Shown here piece after piece: positions 4,079 to 34,556 of a stretch of 64,000 nt of DNA. Under the pieces are notes generated by a model. That model made no database searches and was not told the origin of the DNA. It worked only from the letters and a program-made list of their open reading frames with translations. The stretch lies in the IMG/VR virus record IMGVR_UViG_3300028629_000007. One strand, 5' to 3'. The first letter of the stretch is position 1. Every line of letters begins with the position of its first letter. This DNA is from a virus. The position numbers and the translations under genes were made by a program.

Positions 4079-5564
4079 ACTTTTCTTTATTTTCTGGTGT
4101 TAGCTTCTTATACCAAGTGTCAATATCTTTCATTGGTATTTTCTTATCTTGCTGAATAGCCACTAAGACAGCATCTCTTAATGACTTATCAGCATCTCTT
4201 ATCTCTTCTATAAACATGCGAGCGAATGCGGGGAATTCTCTTGGAGAGTTGATATATGCGGCATACGAAGATAGATCTTGCTTATGCTGTAATCTATTGG
4301 GATCATTCACATGTGTCAACTCATGCCATATACCGCGTGTAACAAATGCCTTTATTTTGTCAAGTTTCTTCAAGTTGCTAACAAGTGAATCAGCAGAGAT
4401 ATAGATTGCATCTTCTTTCTCGTTGAAGTAAAGAGCAGATTCAATATCTGGTGACGTACTTAAGAGTTTCTTTTGGATATTTACAGATATGGAACGACCG
4501 TCCATTTCTATAGAATCTTCCACATAAGTATTATAGCCTTGTGTATATGTTTCTTGAATCTTCTGAAGTAATTCATCAATGTTTTTCGACAGCCATTGAC
4601 GAATAGAATTCGTAGGAAGGCTGACGAGAGTTTCGTTCATAGTATCATCTTCTATAAGATATTCGGTCGATACTACAAATCGTATATTTTCCGAACCCAT
4701 CATATCTCTAGTAAACTCATCAACTGCTTCAAGCATGTTTTCTTCTTCGTTATAAACATACTTAAAATTGAAATATTTTCCAAGTTTGACCCACACATCA
4801 AACGAACCCTTTCCAGTTTCGCCAGTTAGTGATGTATCGGAATATAAAGTCTTCATGAATTCTTCTATAGCATAAATGTAAAGCTTGATAGCTATGCCTT
4901 TACCCTGTGCCTCTGGGGCAAGAGCGACTGATTCTGTTTTCCATTGACCATCTTCGGTATACCAGATAAATTCACCGACATGCGTTCCTTCGGCGTTATA
5001 TAGATGTATTTGAAGATTATCTCTTCTTGACCACGTTTCCGCTTTGTATCCACTTATGTTAAACTCATCTACCAAAGTCATACCCCTACGGTTTAACATA
5101 GATAATACTTCTCTTTTATTTTGTTTAACAACGTAGTTGGAAATGTCTTTATTTCCGTCATTCCATGCTGGCATTTCGACCAAGCGACTTTCCCGTATCT
5201 CTTGATTACGTATCAACTCGTTTATCATCTTGCCGTATGCGTTTATAGCCTGTACCTTGACATTGATCAGCTTCATACCACGCTGCTTGGCTGCGGCAAG
5301 TCGATGATGTCCGTTCTGACAGATTATCTCTCCATCACGATATATCGACACATCTATAGGCTCACTGAAGTCCATGGATGCTGCTACATCATCAGGGACA
5401 GAACCGACTTCACTGGAATTGAGTCGCTTGATAATCTGTGGGTTCATGAACTTGATTTCTGGAATAACTTGATGATACTTCACATTGTCTTCATAAACCA
5501 TCTGAGCATCGGCTTCCAGTTGACTCCAAGTTTCTTTCAGTATCTTTAAGCGATTATCCCTCAT
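4035..5564 (-). CDS. Multidomain late protein: ParB/Srx-like + GNAT-like + HExxH metallopeptidase-like
   Basis: PIDV..NGHHRLAAAK; LAPEAQGKGIAIKLY; IWHELTHV. Confidence 0.8.
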   Translation of the reverse strand: MRDNRLKILKETWSQLEADAQMVYEDNVKYHQVIPEIKFMNPQIIKRLNSSEVGSVPDDVAASMDFSEPIDVSIYRDGEIICQNGHHRLAAAKQRGMKLINVKVQAINAYGKMINELIRNQEIRESRLVEMPAWNDGNKDISNYVVKQNKREVLSMLNRRGMTLVDEFNISGYKAETWSRRDNLQIHLYNAEGTHVGEFIWYTEDGQWKTESVALAPEAQGKGIAIKLYIYAIEEFMKTLYSDTSLTGETGKGSFDVWVKLGKYFNFKYVYNEEENMLEAVDEFTRDMMGSENIRFVVSTEYLIEDDTMNETLVSLPTNSIRQWLSKNIDELLQKIQETYTQGYNTYVEDSIEMDGRSISVNIQKKLLSTSPDIESALYFNEKEDAIYISADSLVSNLKKLDKIKAFVTRGIWHELTHVNDPNRLQHKQDLSSYAAYINSPREFPAFARMFIEEIRDADKSLRDAVLVAIQQDKKIPMKDIDTWYKKLTPENKEKFKAYCQSEFAGPNA

Positions 5565-5566
5565 AT

Positions 5567-6046
5567 TTAAACCCCTGCCGTCTTTAATACTTTATACATT
5601 GATTTCCATTCGGTATTCCAGTTTGTATTATTTCTAATAATAGATAAAAACACTTCTCTACCGCCAAGATATTTGTAATTTATAATATTTGCATGCTTTC
5701 CGTATTGATCAAGTGCTAGTTTTTGTAGATATTTAACGTTAATTTCTCCCATTTCATCAAAATATCTATTACCATGTGATATTGCAACATGATATATATC
5801 AGGCTCCCCATCCAGTAATTCATCATCGGTAATCACATCAGTAACGAATGCAATTTTTAAATTTTTGTCTTTAAGATATTCTAAAATAGCGATGGCAGCC
5901 ATTCCGCAATTTCCCCCACCAAGAGAGCAACCATGTGATTTTAGAATTTCGTAACATTTTATGATTCTTGAGAATATATCATTCTCTTTGTTTTTTTCAA
6001 CTATTTTATTCCATGATTCCTTGAGATTCTTAAGCAGGTTGTCCAT
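5567..6046 (-). CDS. Hypothetical protein with papain/transglutaminase-like Cys-His-Asp motifs
   Basis: GGNCGMAA..YHVAI..YFDEMG. Confidence 0.6.
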   Translation of the reverse strand: MDNLLKNLKESWNKIVEKNKENDIFSRIIKCYEILKSHGCSLGGGNCGMAAIAILEYLKDKNLKIAFVTDVITDDELLDGEPDIYHVAISHGNRYFDEMGEINVKYLQKLALDQYGKHANIINYKYLGGREVFLSIIRNNTNWNTEWKSMYKVLKTAGV

Positions 6047-6924
6047 TAGTCACCACCCACTTCATCACTTATCTCTTCTCTGCTTCCATTGACAATGACA
6101 TACTTCAGCATGCGTTGTCCCTGTAGAGGAATTGCGAGGCACTTCAGCGTTAGCTGCCGATCAAGTCCCTCGTTGTTATTTCCCATGTAATAGGTAATCC
6201 AATCCTCAAGAATAGGCAGATAGAGGATGACCCGTTCCTTGACCAGCGACTTCCTAAGAACCTTACCTTTCTTCAAGCGGTTCTTGTCGATGGTGGCAAG
6301 ATGGTAGCCAACAGGCTCTCCATCTTTTTCTTCAGGCTGATTCCAATACAGATATGGCTGCCCGTCAAGATAGGTCTGCGACTGCTTCTTCAGGTTCTCA
6401 AACAGGTTTGATTCCATGCTGGCGTCTTTGATAATCTCATTCAAGTCTCTCTTGAATCCCTCCATGATATACAAACCAATGGCTTCAAGAAACTTGATGT
6501 CTCCTTCGTTGAGGGCTACAATGTTCTTGAAAGAGGATGACTCATGAAGAATAGACTGGGTGAAGAGTCTCTGGATTCTACTTCTATTTTCGTTGGTTGT
6601 CATGTTGGGTTCAGCAGGAGGCTTGCCTTCCCATTCCGCTGGCTGGTTGAATAGCTTGTGATCCACTTCTTTTCCGTTCATCCACACCGTGAACCATATA
6701 CGACTTTTGGGAAACTTACCAAATACCCATTCTGCTCGCTTTAGCGCACCTTCAAGCGACTTGGCAGAACCATAAGCGTCTTGAAACTTTTTGACAGATC
6801 CGTCTTTATCTATAACTTCCCAGTTCACAGTGTAAGTAACTGGATAGACTCTTCCGGGGCTTGTGTCAAGACCAAGTTTTGACTTATACTTTAGCTGTTC
6901 TTGGTCGAAAGTTTCTTTGGGCAT
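6046..6924 (-). CDS. Hypothetical late protein
   Basis: 292 aa, TATAAATA at 6930-6937, coupled to downstream genes. Confidence 0.8.
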   Translation of the reverse strand: MPKETFDQEQLKYKSKLGLDTSPGRVYPVTYTVNWEVIDKDGSVKKFQDAYGSAKSLEGALKRAEWVFGKFPKSRIWFTVWMNGKEVDHKLFNQPAEWEGKPPAEPNMTTNENRSRIQRLFTQSILHESSSFKNIVALNEGDIKFLEAIGLYIMEGFKRDLNEIIKDASMESNLFENLKKQSQTYLDGQPYLYWNQPEEKDGEPVGYHLATIDKNRLKKGKVLRKSLVKERVILYLPILEDWITYYMGNNNEGLDRQLTLKCLAIPLQGQRMLKYVIVNGSREEISDEVGGD

Positions 6925-6932
6925 GCCTTTAT

Positions 6933-7073
6933 TTATATCTTCTTGATCTGATCCTCTACCCTGTCAATGGTCTTTTTAGCAGTCGCAATAAGAAACTTTC
7001 TTATAGTCCAGAGCATATATAGATTTACAGCAAGTGTCGTAAGGTTGGCTAAAGCGATTATTATGGTTAGCAT
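6933..7073 (-). CDS. 46-aa single-transmembrane peptide (MLTIIIALANLTTLAVNLYMLWTIRKF...)
   Basis: Manual translation; AAGGAG RBS inside a hairpin; late-type AATAAATA at 7092-7099. Confidence 0.65.
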   Translation of the reverse strand: MLTIIIALANLTTLAVNLYMLWTIRKFLIATAKKTIDRVEDQIKKI

Positions 7074-7094
7074 AACAGAAACTCCTTCTGTTAT

Positions 7095-7553
7095 TTATTC
7101 CTTGATGTATATCGTAATAGGAATCTTGGTAGCTTCTTCGAACTTCTGTAAAGCCGACGAATACCATTCCCAATTCCCTCCGCCTAACCCACAACCAATT
7201 TTCGCAGGGAACGCAAGTGACTTAGGATTCAACTTCTTTATCTCCCGTAGGCACGAAATAAAATACTTTTTACGATGCTCAGCGGAGTCCCCAACGGGGT
7301 CATCGTCACGGGGCTTCCCCGGATTATATTGGGCGAACATGTTGATGATGTTCGGCTCACATGGTTCTCCACCACGGGCTACATTGATGGTTCCTGGCTT
7401 ATCTGGTTCCCAGCGAGTTGAGTAACAGTCTGCGTATGTGTAGTTAGCAAACAGAACAGCAGCTAATCCAGCAGCACCATGTGATACACAATTGCATTGA
7501 TGACATATATACTCTTCACGAGCCTTCAAGATGTCAAGATGCTTGGTTTCCAT
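7095..7553 (-). CDS. Macrodomain ADP-ribose hydrolase (TARG1/DarG-like)
   Basis: ICHQCNC..GAAGLA; IINMFAQY; AFPAKIGCGLGGGNW. Confidence 0.9.
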   Translation of the reverse strand: METKHLDILKAREEYICHQCNCVSHGAAGLAAVLFANYTYADCYSTRWEPDKPGTINVARGGEPCEPNIINMFAQYNPGKPRDDDPVGDSAEHRKKYFISCLREIKKLNPKSLAFPAKIGCGLGGGNWEWYSSALQKFEEATKIPITIYIKE

Positions 7554-7582
7554 GTTCCATCTTTCTTTGACAGCTATTGTGT

Positions 7583-7801
7583 CTATCCAGCATATCCCAT
7601 AAAACTTCTGGGGGCAAGAGAATTCAAGTATTCTTCAAAACCATCACGAGACTTCATACGGCACTTGACAAGCTGACAATCAATGGGATTGCCATGACAC
7701 TCGGGACATTCACTATGCAATGCCATGAGGCTGTTTATAAGATCTTCTCGTGTGATTCCTTCCATCAATCTCTCCTTAGCCATGGAGGAACCACACGACA
7801 T
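7583..7801 (-). CDS. Small Cys-rich hypothetical protein
   Basis: ORF track; CPECHGNP..C..C; operon packing. Confidence 0.6.
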   Translation of the reverse strand: MSCGSSMAKERLMEGITREDLINSLMALHSECPECHGNPIDCQLVKCRMKSRDGFEEYLNSLAPRSFMGYAG

Positions 7802-13942: not shown

Positions 13943-14959
13943 TTATTTGACTTTCACATAAAAAATATATTCTTTGTTTCTTGTATGACTTACTTTACCG
14001 ACTTTCTCACCGCTTGGATTATAGATCCCTATTTGAGCGCCAACATATCTCTTGAAGTCTTCCTCAACTACAATAACTTCTCCATATTTTGTAAGAGCCT
14101 TTACCATGTCATCTCTTGTTATATACCCCTCGTTATTGAATGACACAATCATTAGTTTACATTTTATATTGTCACATGTCTTGATAAAACTATCTAAGAT
14201 ATGAGTTTTGCTATTGAATCCTGATTTTCTTTCTTTACAATCAATTCTCTTATTTGCTATTCCGTAGGTTTCTGGTTTATCCCACATAACCAAGGATTCC
14301 CACATATGATAGTTTCCGAGATATGAATGTTGGTTATAGGGCGGATCAAGATAAGCAATATCTACTTCACCTACTTTAGTTCCTATGTCAGCAGCATCGC
14401 CAATAAAAGCCTTTCCAAGTCCATGCGGACTGACATCTACAAGATCCGGAATAGTTAGCAGTAAGTCGTTGTTGGCACGAGTAGCCCACTTCTTTAGATA
14501 CGCCATTTGGACACCACAAGTAGAATCTACACGATCTGCCGCTAACATCAACGAGGTTATAAGAATACTTTTCAGTGGTTCTGGATAGTTTTGTATTTCA
14601 ATATACTCGCGAATTGAATCTACTTTCCCACCATTTTTGGGGTGAATAAATCTTGACTTTATTGAGTAATTATCGAAGAACCACCCATTCTTTGGCTCTA
14701 ATGTATTTAGTGTCTTTATTTCCTTTTCAGCTTCAGCGAGATACTTATCTCTGTCGCCTTCGATATAACACTTGGCTATAGTATATGCATAGGTGTTTAG
14801 GTCATTTGCATAAACAAGAAATCCCTTCTTCTTGAAGAAATGTCCTACTCTCGAAGTTCCAGAGAATACATCAAGGAAGGATTTGTATCTATCAATTTCT
14901 TCGATGTTTTGGTATATGACATCAAGCAGTTTCTTTTTTGATCCGAGGTATTTTATCAT
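13943..14959 (-). CDS. DNA adenine methyltransferase (D12/FokI-like)
   Basis: YLGSKKKL; FLDVFSGT; YLDPPY. Confidence 0.9.
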   Translation of the reverse strand: MIKYLGSKKKLLDVIYQNIEEIDRYKSFLDVFSGTSRVGHFFKKKGFLVYANDLNTYAYTIAKCYIEGDRDKYLAEAEKEIKTLNTLEPKNGWFFDNYSIKSRFIHPKNGGKVDSIREYIEIQNYPEPLKSILITSLMLAADRVDSTCGVQMAYLKKWATRANNDLLLTIPDLVDVSPHGLGKAFIGDAADIGTKVGEVDIAYLDPPYNQHSYLGNYHMWESLVMWDKPETYGIANKRIDCKERKSGFNSKTHILDSFIKTCDNIKCKLMIVSFNNEGYITRDDMVKALTKYGEVIVVEEDFKRYVGAQIGIYNPSGEKVGKVSHTRNKEYIFYVKVK

Positions 14960-15602
14960 CCAATCTCCTTTATTATGTTTTTATCTATGCAATATCTAAC
15001 CATACTATCAACAACAGAAACAAGATTAGATTTTAGTCTTTGTATCTCACTAGCATCGTTCATATAGTAGAAATATTTCCGTCGATCAGAGTCCAAGTTC
15101 TTATACAAAAAGGAGAGTGCTTGTGGTGGACATGCAATACATCCAAATACTGGCTTCTCATATCCCACCGGCATATAGGAAGAAATATCTCCGTGCTTCT
15201 CTATTAGTCTTTCTATCCATAAGAAATAACCTACTCGAAGTAATCTTTCAGGTCCACCATTACACTTTGATTTCTGATCAACATCTTCTACTCTAATAGG
15301 AAGAAGGGTGTTGTCTTTATACAAAAAAGCATCTGGGCAGATTTTTGGGGGAGATTTATATTTTACAAAACTAGGAAGTCCGTCTATAGTGAACCAGTCG
15401 TTGCCAGGATGCTTCTTTTTTTACGCAAAACCTCAATAGTAGGCAACCATCCCTGGATCATGTCTCGGACTGCTTGTTCCTTAGCATCTGCCCTTTCTCT
15501 AACTGCCTTGTCGCCCGTTGAGTTAGTTGCATTATGCTGGTAATTTTCGCTCATCTTCACTATCCTTTCAGGGATATTCATATACTTCGACATAACTACC
15601 AT
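14956..15602 (-). CDS. Hypothetical late protein, apparently one gene broken by a -1 frameshift at an A7 run (15416-15422)
   Basis: The -1 frame is open from the run into ORF 14956-15324, whose TTG start has no RBS. Confidence 0.55.
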
Positions 15603-15705
15603 AGGGGACTCTCCTATAATGTATTTATATCAGATATAAGTATATTTTAGTATATTTTATGAATAAATCAATACCCTACTTCCAGCCCACTCCCAAGTGT
15701 ATCAC

Positions 15706-15921
15706 TCACTCCCCATTCCACTCATCCATTCTACATCTCCCCTGTTGCTTATAAGCCCCTCTCAGATCCTTTCCATGGACTCTAATAGACCACATATTCT
15801 CGGGATCATAACCAGCCATAGTTGTCCCGAAAGTCAATGTATAGTGTATCAATAATCCCATGTCAAGCTTATAGTAGCATCCACCAACAGGATCGTATAA
15901 CTTACTTACCTTCAAGCCCAT
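15706..15921 (-). CDS. Small basic family C protein, paralogue of 20947-21174
   Basis: RVHGKDLRGAYKQQGR..WNGE. Confidence 0.8.
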   Translation of the reverse strand: MGLKVSKLYDPVGGCYYKLDMGLLIHYTLTFGTTMAGYDPENMWSIRVHGKDLRGAYKQQGRCRMDEWNGE

Positions 15922-15924
15922 GGT

Positions 15925-16181
15925 TCACCACCACAGGTGCGGTGCCCACTCGCCAAACAGCTTCAGTGCCTTCTGCGCCTGGGCATGTTTCTTTTTGTCG
16001 TAACCATACCAGTCGTCGCTTGCCATAAACTCGAAGCCCACAAGCATCTCTTCCAGTATCTCCTTCCACTTCTTCTCGGTCAAGTCTCCAGGGAAGCCGT
16101 TGTGAAGCTCAATGAACCTACGGAGTCGCGGAGAAGTTCATTCTCAGCTTCGATGGATTTGATGTAGAGAGCGTCGGTCAC
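15925..16181 (-). pseudogene. Chimeric pseudogene: family A leader fused out of frame to the C-terminal half of a 21354-21755 paralogue
   Basis: GTG-TDALYIKSIEAENELLR then PRLRRFIELHNGFP..HLWW* in another frame; junction at about 16128. Confidence 0.8.
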
Positions 16182-16182
16182 T

Positions 16183-16503
16183 TTATTTTACTTCAAGTAT
16201 GTCTGAAGTCTTTATAATCTCTGGACAGATGACTTCAAGAACTTCTCGGAAGGTTACTTGCGACAGATCGTAGTCCTTGGGTGGAATACATACCATCTTT
16301 ATCAGTTTCTTGAACTTGTCATCTTTCCTGTCATTGGTCCATTCCCACAGGATGTAGTTGACAGTGTGCTGAAGAGCCTGCTCAGAAGACATCTTGGGGG
16401 ATCGCCCCTTTTTTATCTGGTCACGATTCTTCGGGTTGGCAACCTTGTAGTTGCCATTGATGAACTCGTTATAGACTTCGTTGAAGACTTGTTCGAGGAT
16501 CAT
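16183..16503 (-). CDS. Hypothetical protein coupled to the methylase
   Basis: ATGA overlap. Confidence 0.7.
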   Translation of the reverse strand: MILEQVFNEVYNEFINGNYKVANPKNRDQIKKGRSPKMSSEQALQHTVNYILWEWTNDRKDDKFKKLIKMVCIPPKDYDLSQVTFREVLEVICPEIIKTSDILEVK

Positions 16504-17936
16504 CCACGAATCCCATAGTAATCGGGGAGGAACTTGTAGATATAGTCCTGGGTCTTCTGGTCAATGCCAAAGTGCTTGAAGAGCTTCTCATCGTCCCAAG
16601 ACTGAGTGAAGTCGAGCCAGGGGATGAGGGACATATTTCCAAGTGAAAGATCGCAGTTGTTTTTATATAAAGAAAGACAGAAGCGAGCGAAGAAAGTCTT
16701 GCAGTATTCGTGAAAGTTATCGCGTTCGTTTTCGTTAGGAAACTGGAAAGTTGGAATTGGATTACCAGCCCTTGTCAAGTCCAAAATACGAATACCTTTA
16801 CAAGATTCATCTTGTGTATTCATTGTATAAAAATCATCTTTCACAATGGTATTAGAAACGCTATTCGCGGACATGTTGACATTTCCGCGAATAGCAGCAA
16901 ACTGACAATGTTGCTTGTTTTTATCAGCTTTATCGGTTTTCCCCAAACTATAACTCCACACATCGTTTCCGCCGCTACAATCTTTCTTCATTTTTTCCAC
17001 GAAAGGCTTGACGATAGTTTCCCAATCAGCACCAAACTTAGTAATGTTCCAAACATCAGCATCGAACTTCTGGTCGAAATACTCAACAGAACACTTGCCG
17101 TTATAGTCTCGGTCATAACTGATAATAACACATGGAACATAAAGACCAACATCGAAAGTCTTATTCCCATTGAACAAAGTAGCCGACTTCAGCTTACCTT
17201 CCAGTAGCTTCTTGATCTTGATATAACGGCTATTTCCCTTGAGGTCGATCAAATAAGTCGATGGATGAACGATGAGAACATGCTTAGCGTCCAACTTCGT
17301 AATGAACAGATCAAGGAACTTGAGGTCGATGCCCTTCTTGTACGGAGGATTCCCAACCACAACATCAAACTTGATTCCACCCCAGTAGTCAAACTCCAGA
17401 GAATCGCCAACATGGTAGTTGAAGTCGTAGTCATTTTCGTTGCCCAAACGCTGCATGGTGAAGAACACATTCTTCGCCTGGAGGTCAACGAAGTACAACA
17501 TCTTCTCAATAATGTGCTTCTTGCGAGCAGCCTCGTTGGGAATCTGATCAGCCAGTGACACCATCAAACGAGCCAGCACTTCCACAAGGAAGTTACCACC
17601 GCCGACACTGTTGTCCAGCCACTTGTAATCCTTGTGCTTCCATACATCAGCAGGAAGCTTGTCAAGCATATCACGGATAAGCTGCTTAGGAGTGAAACAC
17701 TCGCCAAACTGCTTGCGGTACATGTCACCGGGGGTCAGAATCTTGCTTACATCTTCGCCACGCTTGCGTGCCATTGATACCTCTGCTATGGGGTTATTTA
17801 TCGTTCCATTAGACATTTTATCCAGTAATCGCAAAGTAGCAACAAGTGTTTTCTTGTTACCCATATCGTAGCGACCGATAATGTCATTGACAGTAGATCC
17901 AACGACGGTTTTGCTCAAAGATGACAGACTGGACAT
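16500..17936 (-). CDS. N6-adenine DNA methyltransferase (Eco57I/TaqI-like) with C-terminal specificity region
   Basis: GECFTP; WLDNSVGGGNF; VVGNPPY; start reassigned after promoter and AGGAAAG RBS. Confidence 0.9.
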   Translation of the reverse strand: MSSLSSLSKTVVGSTVNDIIGRYDMGNKKTLVATLRLLDKMSNGTINNPIAEVSMARKRGEDVSKILTPGDMYRKQFGECFTPKQLIRDMLDKLPADVWKHKDYKWLDNSVGGGNFLVEVLARLMVSLADQIPNEAARKKHIIEKMLYFVDLQAKNVFFTMQRLGNENDYDFNYHVGDSLEFDYWGGIKFDVVVGNPPYKKGIDLKFLDLFITKLDAKHVLIVHPSTYLIDLKGNSRYIKIKKLLEGKLKSATLFNGNKTFDVGLYVPCVIISYDRDYNGKCSVEYFDQKFDADVWNITKFGADWETIVKPFVEKMKKDCSGGNDVWSYSLGKTDKADKNKQHCQFAAIRGNVNMSANSVSNTIVKDDFYTMNTQDESCKGIRILDLTRAGNPIPTFQFPNENERDNFHEYCKTFFARFCLSLYKNNCDLSLGNMSLIPWLDFTQSWDDEKLFKHFGIDQKTQDYIYKFLPDYYGIRG

Positions 17937-18020
17937 GTTTTTCTTTCCTCGGGTTATGCTATAAGTATAGGGTGTTTCTACTAACATCAAGTAGTAGCAA
18001 CCCAATTACTCGTCAGTGTC

Positions 18021-19586
18021 TCACACACCCTGTTCGATGAATCGGATGACATCTTCAATGTTCATAACGCTCGTCGGGCAAACCATGAGAAGTTCCTTCA
18101 TCATGCTATTAGCCAGGATGCGAGCCTTGTCCTCGGGAGACATGACCTTTCCTTCCTTTTTGCCTTTCTTGTCACCCTTCCTCTTGATAGTCTCGTTTTT
18201 GCCATTATCGTGGGCGTCATTTGTGTGCATGGCATCGGAGGTCTTGCCTGACGAAGATCCGGTAATATTCAGCGAGTTGAGAAACTCGGCGTCCTTGTCG
18301 TTGATAAGCATGCCGACAATCGTGTTACCAAAGATATTCTCGTAGTAGCCCTCGAAAGTCATCTTACGCTTCATATCAATGAAACGCTGAACGTCAATCT
18401 GGTCGAAAGTGATACCATCATCAGAAGTGTAGATCGGGCAGCAATCAAGAACCTCACGAATAACCTCAAGGTACTGTGAACCCTTGTTGGTAGCCTGACG
18501 AAGCTCAGCCATGCGGTGAACGCAGTGAAGGACTCGGTTGATGTTCATGTCATAAACATAGACACCCTTGCCGTACCGATCATCGCTCGGCTTACGGGGG
18601 GACTGGCAACGGAAGGCAGTCTGGATCCACTCTGACGGACTCTTGCAGTCGTTCATGAAGACCACAGCATCGCACCACGGAAGTGTAACGCCAGTCTTCA
18701 ACTGGTCAACTACAATGACAATGCTGCCCTTCTCTTCTGTCGGAAGCCAGTCATTATGGACCTTGTTATACAGGGCAGTTACATCGTTCTCCCGTGAAGT
18801 GGTCCAGAACACATTGTATTTCTTACCGACCATCTTCTCCAGCTTAGCACGAAGAGCCTCAACACACTTGGAACTCTCGACCGTGATAAGAACCCCCTTG
18901 CAGTTCTTCCGAATCAAACTGTTTTCATTGCGCTGATAGGCACCAATGCCAAAGATCATCTTCAGACCATGCTCAACTGCCTCGTCATACTCAAAGAACC
19001 CCTTCTCGTTGACGGAGAGAAACTTCTTGAAGGTGAACCCCTCGTCCTTGCTATAAACCGAAGCAAGTTCCTTGATGCTCTCTGCCTTGACAGTCGGGCA
19101 GATAAAGTGAATCTGCTCGAAACGCTGATAGGCATCATGACCGGAATTCTTCATCTGCATTTCATCGACCAGATCCCACATATGGGTGTTCTCAATTTCG
19201 AACCGACCATATGACAGGTTGCGCCCAGGGGTAGCCGACATACCGATCAGATACTTGTAGTCGATCAACTCAAGAAGAGCATCGGTACGCTCGGTTTCGA
19301 CACCAAGGTGAATCTCGTCAATGCCCACAACATCGAACTTGACATTGCGAATAGCATCGAACTTCTGCTTTGACCATACGCCAGCATCTTCATCAGCCTC
19401 TCCCTTGCCATCCTGAAGAGAGACGAGAAAGACATTGACAGTATTCTTGGCAATGTACAGTTCCTCACCCTTACGGACATTGATGATGTTGTAGCCCTGA
19501 TAACCGTCCCACTCCATGAAAGTTTCAACCCACTGTTGGTTGAGAATGGGGTAGGAGGACATAATGAGGACATTCATGGAAGGCAT
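18021..19586 (-). CDS. SF2 helicase/translocase subunit lacking motif I
   Basis: Starts at motif Ia VLIMSSYPILNQQW; DEIH; GMSATP; LKTGVTLP; WIQTAFR. Confidence 0.85.
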   Translation of the reverse strand: MPSMNVLIMSSYPILNQQWVETFMEWDGYQGYNIINVRKGEELYIAKNTVNVFLVSLQDGKGEADEDAGVWSKQKFDAIRNVKFDVVGIDEIHLGVETERTDALLELIDYKYLIGMSATPGRNLSYGRFEIENTHMWDLVDEMQMKNSGHDAYQRFEQIHFICPTVKAESIKELASVYSKDEGFTFKKFLSVNEKGFFEYDEAVEHGLKMIFGIGAYQRNENSLIRKNCKGVLITVESSKCVEALRAKLEKMVGKKYNVFWTTSRENDVTALYNKVHNDWLPTEEKGSIVIVVDQLKTGVTLPWCDAVVFMNDCKSPSEWIQTAFRCQSPRKPSDDRYGKGVYVYDMNINRVLHCVHRMAELRQATNKGSQYLEVIREVLDCCPIYTSDDGITFDQIDVQRFIDMKRKMTFEGYYENIFGNTIVGMLINDKDAEFLNSLNITGSSSGKTSDAMHTNDAHDNGKNETIKRKGDKKGKKEGKVMSPEDKARILANSMMKELLMVCPTSVMNIEDVIRFIEQGV

Positions 19587-19631
19587 GTTTTTTCTTTCCT
19601 TGGTTGATGACATTATTGTAGCCATCATTAC

Positions 19632-19659
19632 GGTATATTCAAGAACGGACACAAGTCAA
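19632..19659 (-). promoter_or_regulatory. Early promoter TTGACT-N16-TATACC inside the helicase split
   Basis: Consensus match followed by an AAGGAAAG RBS. Confidence 0.65.
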
Positions 19660-19673
19660 CAGAGGACGGTGTA

Positions 19674-20483
19674 TCACACGCCCCGTTTAGCGTCCCACAT
19701 GTTACGGATAAGTTCGGCAAACATAATGGTCTTTCCAGCCCTCGGCTTGTCAGCAATGAGGAAGTTCCCACCCTTGGGGTTATTCTTGACAAATTCAAGA
19801 GCCTTGCTAACACAATCCTTTTGATGGGGCATGGGTTCAAGGTGCTTACGGTCCTTTACAGCCTCGTCAATTTCAGAAGTATTCCAGTCATGTGCCTTAC
19901 ACTTGTCAATAATCTTGGACCAGAGGACGGCAAGATCGTTGATATCAACGATCAGACAGCGATCCCCAGGAAACTTCTCACGAATAAGCGACGGAACAGC
20001 ACGGTCTTCAATATCGTTCTTGTCACCCACAACAGCGATGAAAATCTGACGGTAGTTACGGTATTTTTCCAGTAGCCCACCATCTAAGATAACTGACCTC
20101 CAATCAATCTGACCCCACTGGGTCTTACCACCACCATGAAGATGCTTGAGTTTCGAGGTTCCTGCGGCAATCGTTTCATCGTCCATGGCAGTAATGTCGC
20201 AACCACCAGACTTGACGCCGAAGCCAATGTCGGTCATCTTGTAGCACTTCTGACCATTCTCATATAGGCTCAGCTTGCGGGGAATCCCCGGAATCTCAAT
20301 GCGAAAGTATAGAGCCAGTTTGAACACCGTTTCACAAATTCTCCCCTTCAGAACAGACGCCTTCTGAACAGTGGAGTAGTGGCTATCAATGTCCTTGAGA
20401 ACCTTCAAGAAGTTCGGACTGATGCCTTTCAAGTCGATGACATCGTGGGACTTGAGGAACGAAGAAATCTGACTAGCGGACAT
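19674..20483 (-). CDS. PD-(D/E)XK (Mrr-like) nuclease ending in helicase Q motif and Walker A
   Basis: GGCDI..TSKLK; EPMPHQ..IADKPRAGKT. Confidence 0.7.
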   Translation of the reverse strand: MSASQISSFLKSHDVIDLKGISPNFLKVLKDIDSHYSTVQKASVLKGRICETVFKLALYFRIEIPGIPRKLSLYENGQKCYKMTDIGFGVKSGGCDITAMDDETIAAGTSKLKHLHGGGKTQWGQIDWRSVILDGGLLEKYRNYRQIFIAVVGDKNDIEDRAVPSLIREKFPGDRCLIVDINDLAVLWSKIIDKCKAHDWNTSEIDEAVKDRKHLEPMPHQKDCVSKALEFVKNNPKGGNFLIADKPRAGKTIMFAELIRNMWDAKRGV

Positions 20484-20565
20484 GTGTGTTTCCTTGGTTT
20501 ACTCTCATACTATACCCACCACTTCCCCAACTTCAAGCCTTATTCCCAGCCCACTTCCAAGTGTA

Positions 20566-20784
20566 TCACACACCATCCCACTTCTCCATTGCCGTTCTCC
20601 CATAGTTCTTACACGCTCGCTTTAGATTCTTCATACGCAAGCTAAAAAGATTACCTTCTGTTGGGGGCAAAGATGAAATATATATTTTATATCCGCTCAA
20701 CAAACCAATATCCAATAAAAAATTATAGCCATGTCGATCAGGATTTTTACTTATCTTGTATCTCATAAGCGTCTCATTCACCAC
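20566..20784 (-). CDS. Small basic family C protein
   Basis: RYKISK..KNLKRACKNYGRTAMEKWDGV. Confidence 0.75.
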   Translation of the reverse strand: MVNETLMRYKISKNPDRHGYNFLLDIGLLSGYKIYISSLPPTEGNLFSLRMKNLKRACKNYGRTAMEKWDGV

Positions 20785-20962
20785 TCCACTTCTTCATCGC
20801 ATCTCTTCCAGTCATCTTATAGTTTTTGTAAAGCATATTTCTTTTTCTATAAACCGTCATCTCAAAGAAAGGCGGCATATGTATAAAGTATCTTCTCCCA
20901 AGGAAAACAAATACTTCATCAGAAGGAAACACGCCTTTTCGGACCTTCATTCGCCACTCCAC
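20774..20962 (-). CDS. Small basic family C protein
   Basis: KRNMLYKNYK..GRDAMKKWSGE. Confidence 0.75.
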   Translation of the reverse strand: MEWRMKVRKGVFPSDEVFVFLGRRYFIHMPPFFEMTVYRKRNMLYKNYKMTGRDAMKKWSGE

Positions 20963-21174
20963 CCATCCATTGTGTTTCTCCCCTGTTGCTTATAAGCCCC
21001 TCTCAGGGTCTTTCCATGAACTCGAACATAATACAAGTTATCGGGCGACCTTCCAATCATAGTAACTGCAAAAGTCAACTTATAGCTACACAATAAGCCC
21101 ATGTCAAGCTCATAGAAGCAACCCGCTACACTATCAAGATTCTTGGTTATCTTCAAGCCCACTCTTCCCTCCAC
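20947..21174 (-). CDS. Small basic family C protein
   Basis: RGAYKQQGRNTMDGWSGE. Confidence 0.75.
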   Translation of the reverse strand: MEGRVGLKITKNLDSVAGCFYELDMGLLCSYKLTFAVTMIGRSPDNLYYVRVHGKTLRGAYKQQGRNTMDGWSGE

Positions 21175-21350
21175 CGAAGCATAGCGTCACTTCCCCGTTT
21201 CTTGTAATAACGGAGCATATACGATCTATTCCAAAAACCACCGGAAGTGTCGGAAGTGTTGAAGAAAAACAAACCCCGTTCAATAAAGTAAGCGTTTATT
21301 GATCCGCGATTCTTGCTTCCATGTAATATTTTACGATACTTCAAGCCCAT
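21153..21350 (-). CDS. Small basic family C protein
   Basis: MGLKYRK..RYYKKRGSDAMLRWREE. Confidence 0.75.
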   Translation of the reverse strand: MGLKYRKILHGSKNRGSINAYFIERGLFFFNTSDTSGGFWNRSYMLRYYKKRGSDAMLRWREEWA

Positions 21351-21353
21351 GGC

Positions 21354-21755
21354 TCACCACCACAGGTGTCTTGCCCACTTCCCAAACAACTCAAGCGCCT
21401 TATCAGCCTTCGCATGTTTCTTTTTGTCGCTACATCCATAGTAGTCATCGCTCGCCATGAATTCGAAGCCCTCAAGCATCTCCTTCAGAGTAGCGTCCCA
21501 CTTCTTCTCGGTCATTCCAGAATGCCCAGGAAACCCGTTGTTCAACTCAATGAACCTACGGAGTCGTGGAACAATCCACTCGGCAAACCTGAAATCAAGG
21601 TTCCAAGTCTCCATGTCACACCAGCCCTGCTTCTCATACTGCTTGGTGAATCGCTTAGCGCGAGCCAGCAGCTTCTTGGTTGGCTTGGGTCCGACACTCT
21701 CGTTGATATACTTGAGTTGCGGCTCAATCCACTTATAGGATTTGTTTTTAGTCAT
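21354..21755 (-). CDS. Conserved phage hypothetical protein ending LWW
   Basis: ETWNLD..IVPRLRRF..GFP..W...L.EM..GF..LFGKW..LWW. Confidence 0.85.
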   Translation of the reverse strand: MTKNKSYKWIEPQLKYINESVGPKPTKKLLARAKRFTKQYEKQGWCDMETWNLDFRFAEWIVPRLRRFIELNNGFPGHSGMTEKKWDATLKEMLEGFEFMASDDYYGCSDKKKHAKADKALELFGKWARHLWW

Positions 21756-26994: not shown

Positions 26995-27330
26995 TTACTC
27001 CTTAAATCCAAATGTATATTCAGTGCAGACAGGACCGCAGCACATACCATGCTCAACGATGCTGTCAAGTTCAATGTCGAACTTCTTGCAGAAGTTCTTG
27101 AGCTTGCGTTCGGTGATGGTATCACATAGGTCATTGCCAATGCTCTTGTCAAGTGCCTTGTCCATCTCGTCGGTGAAGTTGAAGCGATTGACCATACCAT
27201 CAGTTACGACGAATGCAACATGCTTGCAATGGGTGTCGGGGTCGGTTCCAATCTTTTGATCGCAGAAAGGACAGACGATATGCTCGAAATCGTCTTCGGG
27301 GATGCTGGAGTTTCCGTGATGGGCGCACAT
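26995..27330 (-). CDS. Cys/His-rich hypothetical protein
   Basis: CPFC..CKH; promoter upstream. Confidence 0.7.
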   Translation of the reverse strand: MCAHHGNSSIPEDDFEHIVCPFCDQKIGTDPDTHCKHVAFVVTDGMVNRFNFTDEMDKALDKSIGNDLCDTITERKLKNFCKKFDIELDSIVEHGMCCGPVCTEYTFGFKE

Positions 27331-27408
27331 AGTATTTGTTTCCTTACCTTTATGGTAGCAGCTTTTGAGCGCCTCGCAAGCGACAATACAAGATGCTTGG
27401 GGAGTGTA

Positions 27409-27939
27409 TCACACAACTCCGTCGTTCTTGTCATTGACTACTTCAAGATTATGCTTGACAACATAATCACGATACTCGGACCACCACTCGGGTTGCTTAA
27501 TTTTCCATTTTGCGAAACGATATTTAGATCCGGCGTAAAATAATTTATAGGAATGTACTGGATCGTCGGTCATAAATTGAGGAAACATAGCAAGTTTAAA
27601 TTTCGTCAATGGTTTATTTGGAAATATATCTATATATTTTTTTGAATGGTTTACTATATTCATACTTTTATGCGGCTTACCTTGTCTAATAATATTTTCT
27701 TGTCCCAACTGATCGCACATATCCATAAGCCACTTGACATTTTCTCTACTTTCCATAAGCCACAGATTACAGGGGTGCTTAGGGTTAAATTTCTTGTAAA
27801 GAATATCATCATCATCAACCCCTAAGTGACGAATACATGTTGAAAGCATCTGTGCTGATTCCAAAATCATTTTTAAATGTTTGTCACAATGAAACTTAGC
27901 AGATTTTACTGGATTGTGGTCAAGAACGAAGATATTCAA
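27409..27939 (-). CDS. Pyrimidine-dimer DNA glycosylase (DenV-like family)
   Basis: NIFVLDHNP..CDKH.KMILESAQMLST..HPCNLW; TTG start overlapping the endonuclease stop. Confidence 0.85.
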   Translation of the reverse strand: MNIFVLDHNPVKSAKFHCDKHLKMILESAQMLSTCIRHLGVDDDDILYKKFNPKHPCNLWLMESRENVKWLMDMCDQLGQENIIRQGKPHKSMNIVNHSKKYIDIFPNKPLTKFKLAMFPQFMTDDPVHSYKLFYAGSKYRFAKWKIKQPEWWSEYRDYVVKHNLEVVNDKNDGVV

Positions 27940-34030: not shown

Positions 34031-34082
34031 TATTGTATCTCCTTGGGTCTTATTCTAACGAGGGTTCTTGGGAACGCAAGAG

Positions 34083-34556
34083 TTATTTGTAAGCACCTTT
34101 TATAGTGTGATGCTTCTCTGCGTCAACTATCACACACATGTCTGGATTACCATTGAAAAATCCACGAATGAATGTCTCTGCGTCACTTAATGAAAAAAAA
34201 CATGGGGTTCTGGTTACTTCGCTACTAAGTGGATGCCAGAAATCATTGAAAGCATTACCAGTCAGTTCAATACGGAAGCCATGTTCGGGGTATCTATACA
34301 TTCCATATTTGAGCGTGTGGTCGGTTGAATTGAATACTTCAGTCACGGTGAATCTTTTTACTCCACCAAGATAATAATGCCATACATTAGTATCTTTCCC
34401 TTCTAGTCGGGATGTGAAGTAATATCTGATAAGCTTACATCTCATAGAATCTACAAGCATCCTTAGACGCTCGTTATCAGCTTCAAGATCCTTGAGACGC
34501 CTTAGAATTTCGGCGGTACTATTATTGACTTTTTTGGTAGATGGTCTAGTACCCAT
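34083..34556 (-). CDS. Family A leader protein
   Basis: LKDLEADNERLR. Confidence 0.7.
   Translation of the reverse strand: MGTRPSTKKVNNSTAEILRRLKDLEADNERLRMLVDSMRCKLIRYYFTSRLEGKDTNVWHYYLGGVKRFTVTEVFNSTDHTLKYGMYRYPEHGFRIELTGNAFNDFWHPLSSEVTRTPCFFSLSDAETFIRGFFNGNPDMCVIVDAEKHHTIKGAYK

Follow-up and report, generated by a model that had tools for sequence, protein, structure and literature searches.

Here we describe a nuclease-helicase-methylase cassette encoded on the minus strand of the viral record IMGVR_UViG_3300028629_000007, of which a stretch of 64,000 nucleotides (nt; hereafter, the window) was analyzed. A preliminary description of this DNA had proposed that a restriction nuclease-helicase is split there, between Walker A and motif Ia, into two separately promoted genes. 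Both open reading frames (ORFs) lie where they had been placed, on the minus strand and in one frame, and are followed by a methylase gene:

20483-19674, minus strand: N-half gene, 269 amino acids (aa), assigned from Pfam, alignments and structure comparison
19586-18021, minus strand: C-half gene, 521 aa, assigned from Pfam, alignments and the predicted structure
16500..17936, minus strand: gene for a gamma-class N6-adenine DNA methyltransferase, 478 aa, assigned from Pfam, motifs and homology to the single-chain relative P0018

The N-half carries a probable PD-(D/E)xK-fold nuclease domain at residues ~20-200, with conserved G47, E51, D96 and T109-S110-K111, followed at residues ~215-267 by a Q-like motif (PHQ), strand beta1, Walker A (KPRAGKT) and helix alpha1 of RecA1. 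It terminates just past Walker A and this helix as ADKPRAGKTIMFAELIRNMWDAKRGV followed by the stop (RGV-TGA), and a longer view of its C-terminal stretch reads FLIADKPRAGKTIMFAELIRNMWDAKRGV up to the same stop. The C-half starts as MPSMNVLIMSSYPILNQQW, at the motif Ia strand (NVLIMSSYP), and contains motif II (DEIH, within GIDEIH), motif III (SATP) and motif VI of RecA2 (QTAFRCQSPR), then a basic linker and C-terminal helices, the gene ending QGV-TGA. The break can also be read from family profiles: positions 2-50 of the Pfam ResIII profile align to the end of the N-half and positions 55-163 to the start of the C-half, and PHROG helicase family 16 also splits its alignment across these two ends. 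The ORF ends, the motifs and the ResIII alignment bear out the proposed position. The break is between motif I and motif Ia of a superfamily 2 (SF2) ATPase, in the 3-4-residue loop that leads from helix alpha1 (after Walker A) to strand beta2 (motif Ia), inside RecA1.

Relatives were sought in 5.8 billion protein clusters, and the close homologues, at least six diverged metagenomic relatives with 44-84% identity in the N-half and 60-93% in the C-half, proved to be broken at the same loop. The start sites of five C-half relatives (494-534 aa, 60-90% identity) all fall within a few residues of one point, just ahead of the motif Ia strand, and six N-half relatives (44-84% identity) all end at one residue after the Walker A helix; the same C-terminal residue is found in seven N-halves, the one from the window included. 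The N- and C-half partners occur on contigs of identical size (30011, 4360, 5302, 4298 and 82367), which we read as co-located halves, and the methylase was found on four of these or related contigs (7956, 4360, 30011 and 5302). In the metagenome contig L001, the N-half, a spacer, the C-half and the methylase follow one another in the same order as in the window. The window's own protein cluster is also present on a 177.5 kb contig.

The ratio of nonsynonymous to synonymous substitution rates (dN/dS) between the window and L001 was 0.097 for the N-half, 0.045 for the C-half and 0.17 for the methylase, at dS values of 0.8-1.0, with synonymous sites near saturation. Furthermore, LIADKPRAGKTI is invariant in all N-halves although these share just 44-84% overall identity, as are the DE.H, SATP and Q..FRCQSPR (motif VI) columns in all C-halves. 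These results show a genuine, inherited split in which both halves are under purifying selection and no ATPase motif has been lost. The low dN/dS values and the invariant motifs rule out a sequencing artefact, a recent pseudogene or a decaying disarmed subunit.

An additional feature of the split-clade N-half relatives P0013, P0014 and P0017 is an N-terminal extension of ~65 residues that the window protein does not have; the stretch GQRGRKPLWV is common to the extensions of P0014 and P0017.

The preliminary description had held that its reading would fall if homologues were always fused and the halves showed decay. The distant homologues are indeed fused without exception, whereas the close ones have the same split and no sign of decay. 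When 1.84 billion representative proteins were searched with an N-half profile, 20 matches were obtained in total, and the full-length ones outside the split clade are all fused. The nuclease is joined to a complete helicase in P0016 (842 aa), P0024 (804 aa) and P0025 (784 aa), and single chains with an added Eco57I/N6-type methylase are found in P0018 (1231 aa), P0022 (1367 aa), P0023 (1273 aa) and P0028 (1342 aa). The three proteins of the window map in order onto P0018, the C-half to residues 256-679 (32% identity, 1e-59) and the methylase to residues 798-969 (44% identity, 6e-44), and in P0016 residues 1-252 match the N-half and residues 261-741 the C-half. When fused and split proteins were aligned jointly, helix alpha1 and strand beta2 lay only 3-4 residues apart in 15 fused relatives (e.g., KKL-NAK-NILLL), the point at which the first chain of the split clade ends W-DAK-RGV and the second begins MPSM-NVLIM. 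A 1241-aa single-ORF relative was also found in a bacterial metagenome-assembled genome (MAG), that of Candidatus Muiribacterium halophilum (L002:494-4219).

The six split rows cluster together on a long branch, with 100/100 support, in a maximum-likelihood tree built from the helicase core, and all 12 other rows are fused. In this unrooted tree, no fused form is nested in the split group, and end branches within the split clade reach up to 0.45 substitutions per site. This topology is consistent with one fission event. Outside these relatives, a megablast of positions 16000-21000 against phage records gave no match, and tblastn against phage records gave one distant, unannotated match for the C-half (24%) and none for the N-half. 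No relatives were found when IMG/VR was scanned for them, and NCBIfam and PADLOC have no family for either half.

Other helicase relatives differ in what precedes the motor. P0007 (697 aa) and P0008 (694 aa), with 27-28% identity to the C-half, carry T5orf172 (PF10544) in place of the PD-(D/E)xK domain, and the nuclease module ahead of the motor has therefore been swapped in evolution. The relative in L002 has a different N-terminal region with the same fused motor behind it, and a gene for an SbcC/SMC-like ATPase lies downstream (5526-7685).

The similar leaders that had been reported before the nuclease, helicase and methylase genes are real, since, in the window as in L001, the three junctions (those preceding the N-half, the C-half and the methylase) align over ~95 nt as one architecture. 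The copies in the window, and the inverted repeat that they share, are as follows:

20481..20574, minus strand: junction module copy 1, 5' of the N-half gene (sequence model, 72-bit-class match, E 2.4e-20)
19587..19676, minus strand: junction module copy 2, the 90-nt spacer between the halves (alignment and sequence model)
17937..18030, minus strand: junction module copy 3, at the C-half/methylase junction (alignment and sequence model)
18016-18026, 19669-19679, 20561-20571 and 27404-27414, minus strand: GTGTGA[T/G]ACAC inverted repeat with a TGA stop at its center, each heading a ~90-nt module

The order within the module is GGx-GTG-TGA-yACAC (Gly-Val-stop in a GTGT/ACAC inverted repeat), ~24 nt, CTTGAA, 15-17 nt, TAnAnT, ~8 nt, AACCAAGGAAA, 6-8 nt and the ATG. 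In copy 1, the Gly-Val-TGA end of the preceding gene lies inside GTGTGATACAC (20571-20561), followed by a promoter-like TTGAAG-16-TATAGT (20536-20509), the Shine-Dalgarno sequence AACCAAGGAAA (20499-20489) and an ATG at 20483. Copy 2 is the gap of about 90 nt in which the preliminary description had placed two TGA codons, a promoter and a ribosome-binding site, and all of these can be recognized: the stop TGA (19676-19674, inside GTGTGATACAC) and a second in-frame TGA (19658-19656), a predicted promoter TTGAAT-16-TACAAT (19642-19615), and the Shine-Dalgarno AACCAAGGAAA (19605-19595), which ends 8 nt before the ATG. Copy 3 has its stop inside GTGTGAGACAC, the hexamers TTGATG-15-TATACT, the Shine-Dalgarno AACCCGAGGAAAG and an ATG at 17936. 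When all 64 kb were scanned with a sequence model of the module, only these three junctions were recovered, together with one copy at 27330-27417 and a weak match at 34033-34108, and the stop-bearing motif GTGTGANACAC occurs 4 times against 0.13 expected. The proteins 5' of the copies end Gly-Val (WDGV, KRGV, EQGV and DGVV), and therefore the module carried their last codons along.

The window and L001 agree completely (100% identity) over the last 44 nt at the 3' end of the spacer, a segment that runs from the -10 hexamer TACAAT, includes AACCAAGGAAAGAAAAAAC and reaches the ATG, whereas about half of the neighboring third codon positions differ. Because this identity stands amid diverged third positions, the 3' end of the spacer has the signature of a regulatory element and not of coding sequence. 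A generic promoter scan of the region showed no enrichment (11 found versus 9.5 expected in shuffles), so the case for a promoter rests on conservation and not on counts. Hairpins formed by the inverted repeats range from -3.8 to -11.4 kcal/mol (z-scores of -1.3 to +1.1) and have no T-run. Considering this weak folding and the missing T-run, a role as intrinsic terminator was rejected; the repeat GTGTGAyACAC may be a protein-binding or recombination site.

We infer that the split arose when the leader module of the cassette was inserted, as a further copy, into the loop between alpha1 and beta2. Going further, and only tentatively, the ~90-nt unit could be a portable regulatory cassette that landed in a surface loop and fissioned the enzyme into separately promoted subunits, with the two-chain ATP site as a control point (e.g., restriction needing both chains at threshold after methylase action). 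If this were true, it would represent a regulatory route to gene fission without homing endonuclease, intron or intein. The closest described elements are the promoter-early stem-loop (PeSL) cassettes of T4-type phages, which are likewise short, repeated and intergenic, combine a sigma-70-like promoter with an inverted repeat, are found where genes meet in the variable regions of large phages and have been proposed to drive modular shuffling (PMC2839356). PeSLs are defined by a strong sigma-70-like promoter and a terminating stem-loop. The module of the window has the hexamers CTTGAA and TAnAnT; its inverted repeat, unlike that of a PeSL, embeds a stop codon, folds weakly without a T-run and would form no terminator. 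Another difference is that the module sits within former coding sequence, and the 64 kb contain only four copies, of which this cassette accounts for three.

The two halves were modeled together with AlphaFold2 (AF2) as a read-through translation, in which TGA was taken as Trp and the spacer became an artificial 30-residue linker, using a 27-row alignment. The joined model reached a predicted local distance difference test (pLDDT) score of 77.5 and a predicted template modeling (pTM) score of 0.73; the linker (270-298) falls below 50, and beta1 (239-245), alpha1 (251-267) and beta2 (303-309) are confident. Its best PDB match in Foldseek was the Type ISP enzyme LlaBIII (4xqk; E 5.6e-13, 746-819 aligned columns), with Snf2-type and other SF2 motors ranking below. 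Modeled alone, the N-half reached a pLDDT of 87.9 and residues 239-245 were not a strand, as expected for the orphan edge of a sheet. Foldseek gave no match at E<=0.001 for the N-half alone. In a full-library structural search with its first ~200 residues (VIA-align), N.BspD6I, the LlaBIII nuclease domain and R.BspD6I came out on top, the LlaBIII domain (Z 7.2, root-mean-square deviation 3.9, 133 residues) being tied for first place, and the lower matches were almost all PD-(D/E)xK enzymes (McrC, MspJI, FokI, Avs4, HamA, HindIII and Cfr10I). A PD-(D/E)xK fold is thus likely for the nuclease domain, a call that rests on a Z of ~7, middling by the tool's own warning, and on the uniform match list.

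The nuclease residues G47/E51, D96 and K111 are conserved in 19/19 relatives. The Mrr-family nuclease of Type ISP enzymes has a motif I Glu, D-G-x-x-D and QxK (PMC2790908). The window protein was not assigned to the Mrr subfamily: it lacks the D-G-x-x-D known from LlaGI, having K-S-G-G-C-D with no supplementary Asp, and its motif III reads T-S-K instead of QxK; it has D96 and (S/T)xK, and it is phage encoded. Active enzymes, SsoII and PspGI among them, can have Ser or Thr at that motif III position (PMC2790908). Hence, the initial label of a restriction nuclease-helicase holds as far as the PD-(D/E)xK fold and the top structural match to LlaBIII are concerned, while the nuclease motif is noncanonical and the activity only predicted.

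The methylase matches N6_Mtase (E 4.7e-7) and has the Eco57I motif, DNSVGGGNF (xGxG) preceding GNPPY. With it, the window follows the domain order of the Type ISP enzyme LlaBIII: an N-terminal PD-(D/E)xK nuclease, an SF2 ATPase, a helical connector and a gamma-class N6-adenine methylase. The SF2 helicase-like ATPase motifs I-VI of such enzymes are present, spread over both halves, and a gamma-class N6-adenine methyltransferase follows the motor. Structurally, the joined model matches LlaBIII best, and the LlaBIII nuclease ties for the best match to the nuclease domain of the N-half; single chains of 1230-1370 aa with the Type ISP layout occur among the distant relatives of the window proteins. 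Unlike Type ISP enzymes, which are single polypeptides, the window has three genes, each with its own Shine-Dalgarno and ATG, and one cut lies inside RecA1; the single-chain form is found only in the distant relatives P0018, P0022, P0023 and P0028. Sequence searches of PDB with profiles of both halves and the methylase returned nothing significant and no similarity to LlaBIII or LlaGI. The placement of a PD-(D/E)xK nuclease and an SF2 (ResIII-family) motor on a subunit apart from the methylase also recalls the HsdR subunit of Type I and the Res subunit of Type III enzymes, whose layout the 780-840-aa fused relatives resemble. However, HsdR and Res are single chains, the Res nuclease is C-terminal, unlike that of the window, sequence similarity to HsdR/Res is weak (3h1t, E 0.023), and no HsdS-type specificity subunit was seen.

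Considering these observations, it is probable that a Type ISP-like enzyme was fissioned into three genes in one phage lineage and that its ATPase is rebuilt in trans. The ancestor would have been a single chain with a PD-(D/E)xK nuclease, an SF2 translocase ATPase and a gamma-class adenine methylase. One fission would have occurred in the linker before the methylase and the other inside RecA1, in the alpha1-beta2 loop, where the inserted ~90-nt module, which also precedes other cassette genes, would supply the Gly-Val-stop, a sigma-70-like promoter, a Shine-Dalgarno sequence and a start codon. The 269-aa chain (nuclease, beta1, P-loop and alpha1) and the 521-aa chain (the rest of RecA1, RecA2 and the C-terminal helices) would be translated separately and dock non-covalently, a fragment complementation of RecA1 in which Walker A of the first chain would meet DEIH and motif VI of the second at one ATP site. 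The methylase would be held by two segments with homology to the P0018 connector region, namely the C-terminal helices of the second chain and the first ~70 residues of the methylase. Together with this subunit, the complex would work as a translocating nuclease driven by ATP and resemble Type I enzymes or Type ISP enzymes, the latter of which translocate in an ATP-dependent manner and cleave unmodified DNA upon collision.

Several points weigh against this proposal. The family is tiny, with 20 matches in 1.84 billion representatives, and known purely from metagenomes. In four relatives, the halves are taken to be co-located because their contigs are identically sized, the DNA order having been read in L001 only, and promoter activity is deduced from conserved hexamers, the methylase copy having a spacing of 15 nt. 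The added tails of just 3-4 residues are unlike the interaction tails of the split NrdA described below. The AF2 model joins the halves covalently through the translated spacer and so cannot show docking. The nuclease motif III is (S/T)xK and not (D/E/Q)xK, its Z of ~7 is middling, and nuclease activity is predicted. Finally, neither the family match of the methylase C-terminal part nor the 4xqk alignment, which extends over most of the model, picked out a target-recognition domain or a coupler.

The preliminary description had left two options, a two-chain ATPase assembled in trans or a deliberately disarmed R subunit. The first is the one we favor, with reasonable confidence: the 100/100 clade, the dN/dS values of 0.097 and 0.045 and the invariant motifs support it, and from them we infer assembly. 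A different arrangement, in which the chains act apart, the N-half as a stand-alone nuclease whose P-loop is a docking or regulatory peptide and the C-half as an ATP-independent DNA-binding scaffold for the methylase, would fit a nuclease domain that folds confidently alone (pLDDT 87.9) and the ability of Type ISP domains to leave DNA separately (PMC4666363). We consider it unlikely, as it gives no reason for an invariant K251/T252 (Walker A) on one chain and DEIH and the motif VI arginines on the other unless they meet at one ATP site, and the beta1 strand forms only with the C-half in the model.

The disarmed subunit, with a methylase that works alone in self-protection or anti-restriction and R fragments that are being lost or are non-catalytic, is not supported, given the conserved split, purifying selection and invariant ATPase motifs, and we judge it quite improbable. 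Phages often carry orphan methylases, and a Dam-like methylase is indeed encoded at 13943-14959; cutting RecA1 through its core should harm folding, and the enzyme activity is predicted. On the contrary, dN/dS of both halves (0.097 and 0.045) is below that of the methylase (0.17), Walker A, DEIH, SATP, motif VI, E51, D96 and K111 are invariant down to 44% identity, and the split is old, as the clade's end branches of up to 0.45 substitutions per site indicate.

Synthesis of one polypeptide after all, by TGA read-through, a gene 60-like ribosome bypass, or RNA or protein splicing, is hardly credible: although the window ORFs share a frame with just two TGA codons between them and a 50-nt bypass occurs in T4-type phages (bioRxiv 10.1101/2022.08.31.505936), the spacer of L001 is 1 nt shorter (89 nt) and shifts the ORFs into different frames, its N frame meets TGA, TAG, TGA and TAA, which excludes read-through and bypass, a conserved Shine-Dalgarno and ATG belong to the second ORF itself, and the translated spacer has no counterpart in the 15 fused relatives. 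The individual mechanisms were rejected as well. Recoding of TGA as Trp does not agree with the TAG and TAA codons that are also in the L001 spacer. A bypass of the T4 gene 60 type lacks a matched take-off/landing codon pair (the pre-stop codon is GTG in the window and GAG in L001, with no matching landing codon), and the spacer varies in length and the second ORF is independently equipped for translation. A group I or II intron was rejected because Rfam gave no family over 15500-21500 and 90 nt is below intron size, and an intein because there are no intein blocks and the new termini (RGV and MPSM) add 3-4 residues.

The two-chain ATPase reading has a parallel in the NrdA of Aeromonas phage Aeh1, which is split into NrdA-a and NrdA-b and assembles in trans (PMC3045599), one of the phage "genes in pieces" that have been reviewed (PMC2988022). 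In both cases a large-phage enzyme gene is cut within a catalytic domain and both parts are kept, and the Aeh1 product is assembled from two polypeptides without splicing. As in "genes in pieces", one ancestral gene has become two intact genes that are kept in relatives. However, the Aeh1 cut was made by the homing endonuclease gene mobE and the new tails are interaction domains, whereas the tails in the window have 3-4 residues, and the 90-nt gap holds no ORF and thus no mobile endonuclease gene at the break.

If the chains rebuild one ATP site, the cassette would be a natural, selected case of an SF2 motor that withstands being cut between motifs I and Ia, which would help to design split helicases or split restriction enzymes and to understand how RecA folds assemble. 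A literature search for an SF2 helicase split between motifs I and Ia found no description, which is not proof of absence. The Type ISP-like family exists as one, two or three genes, and so links single-chain and multi-subunit ATP-dependent restriction enzymes. Our results also suggest that the "genes in pieces" of large phages can arise through short promoter cassettes, and not through homing endonucleases alone. In annotations, the N-half and C-half ORFs should not be labeled pseudogene fragments.

The methylase has a wider distribution than its partner, as its family is far commoner than the nuclease-helicase (230 matches versus 20, proteins from Nitrososphaeria MAGs included), and many of these matches cover just the C-terminal 60% of the query. 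Its C-terminal ~270 aa have phrog_11371, of unknown function, as their sole match and may be the target-recognition part. Downstream of the methylase, two further genes were recorded:

16183-16503, minus strand: 106-aa ORF whose ATG overlaps the methylase stop (ATGA), with no Pfam or family match
13943-14959, minus strand: second DNA methylase, of the D12 (Dam-like) class (PF02086, E 4e-31), 1.5 kb downstream of the cassette

The 106-aa ORF may be a fourth, translationally coupled gene of the cassette.

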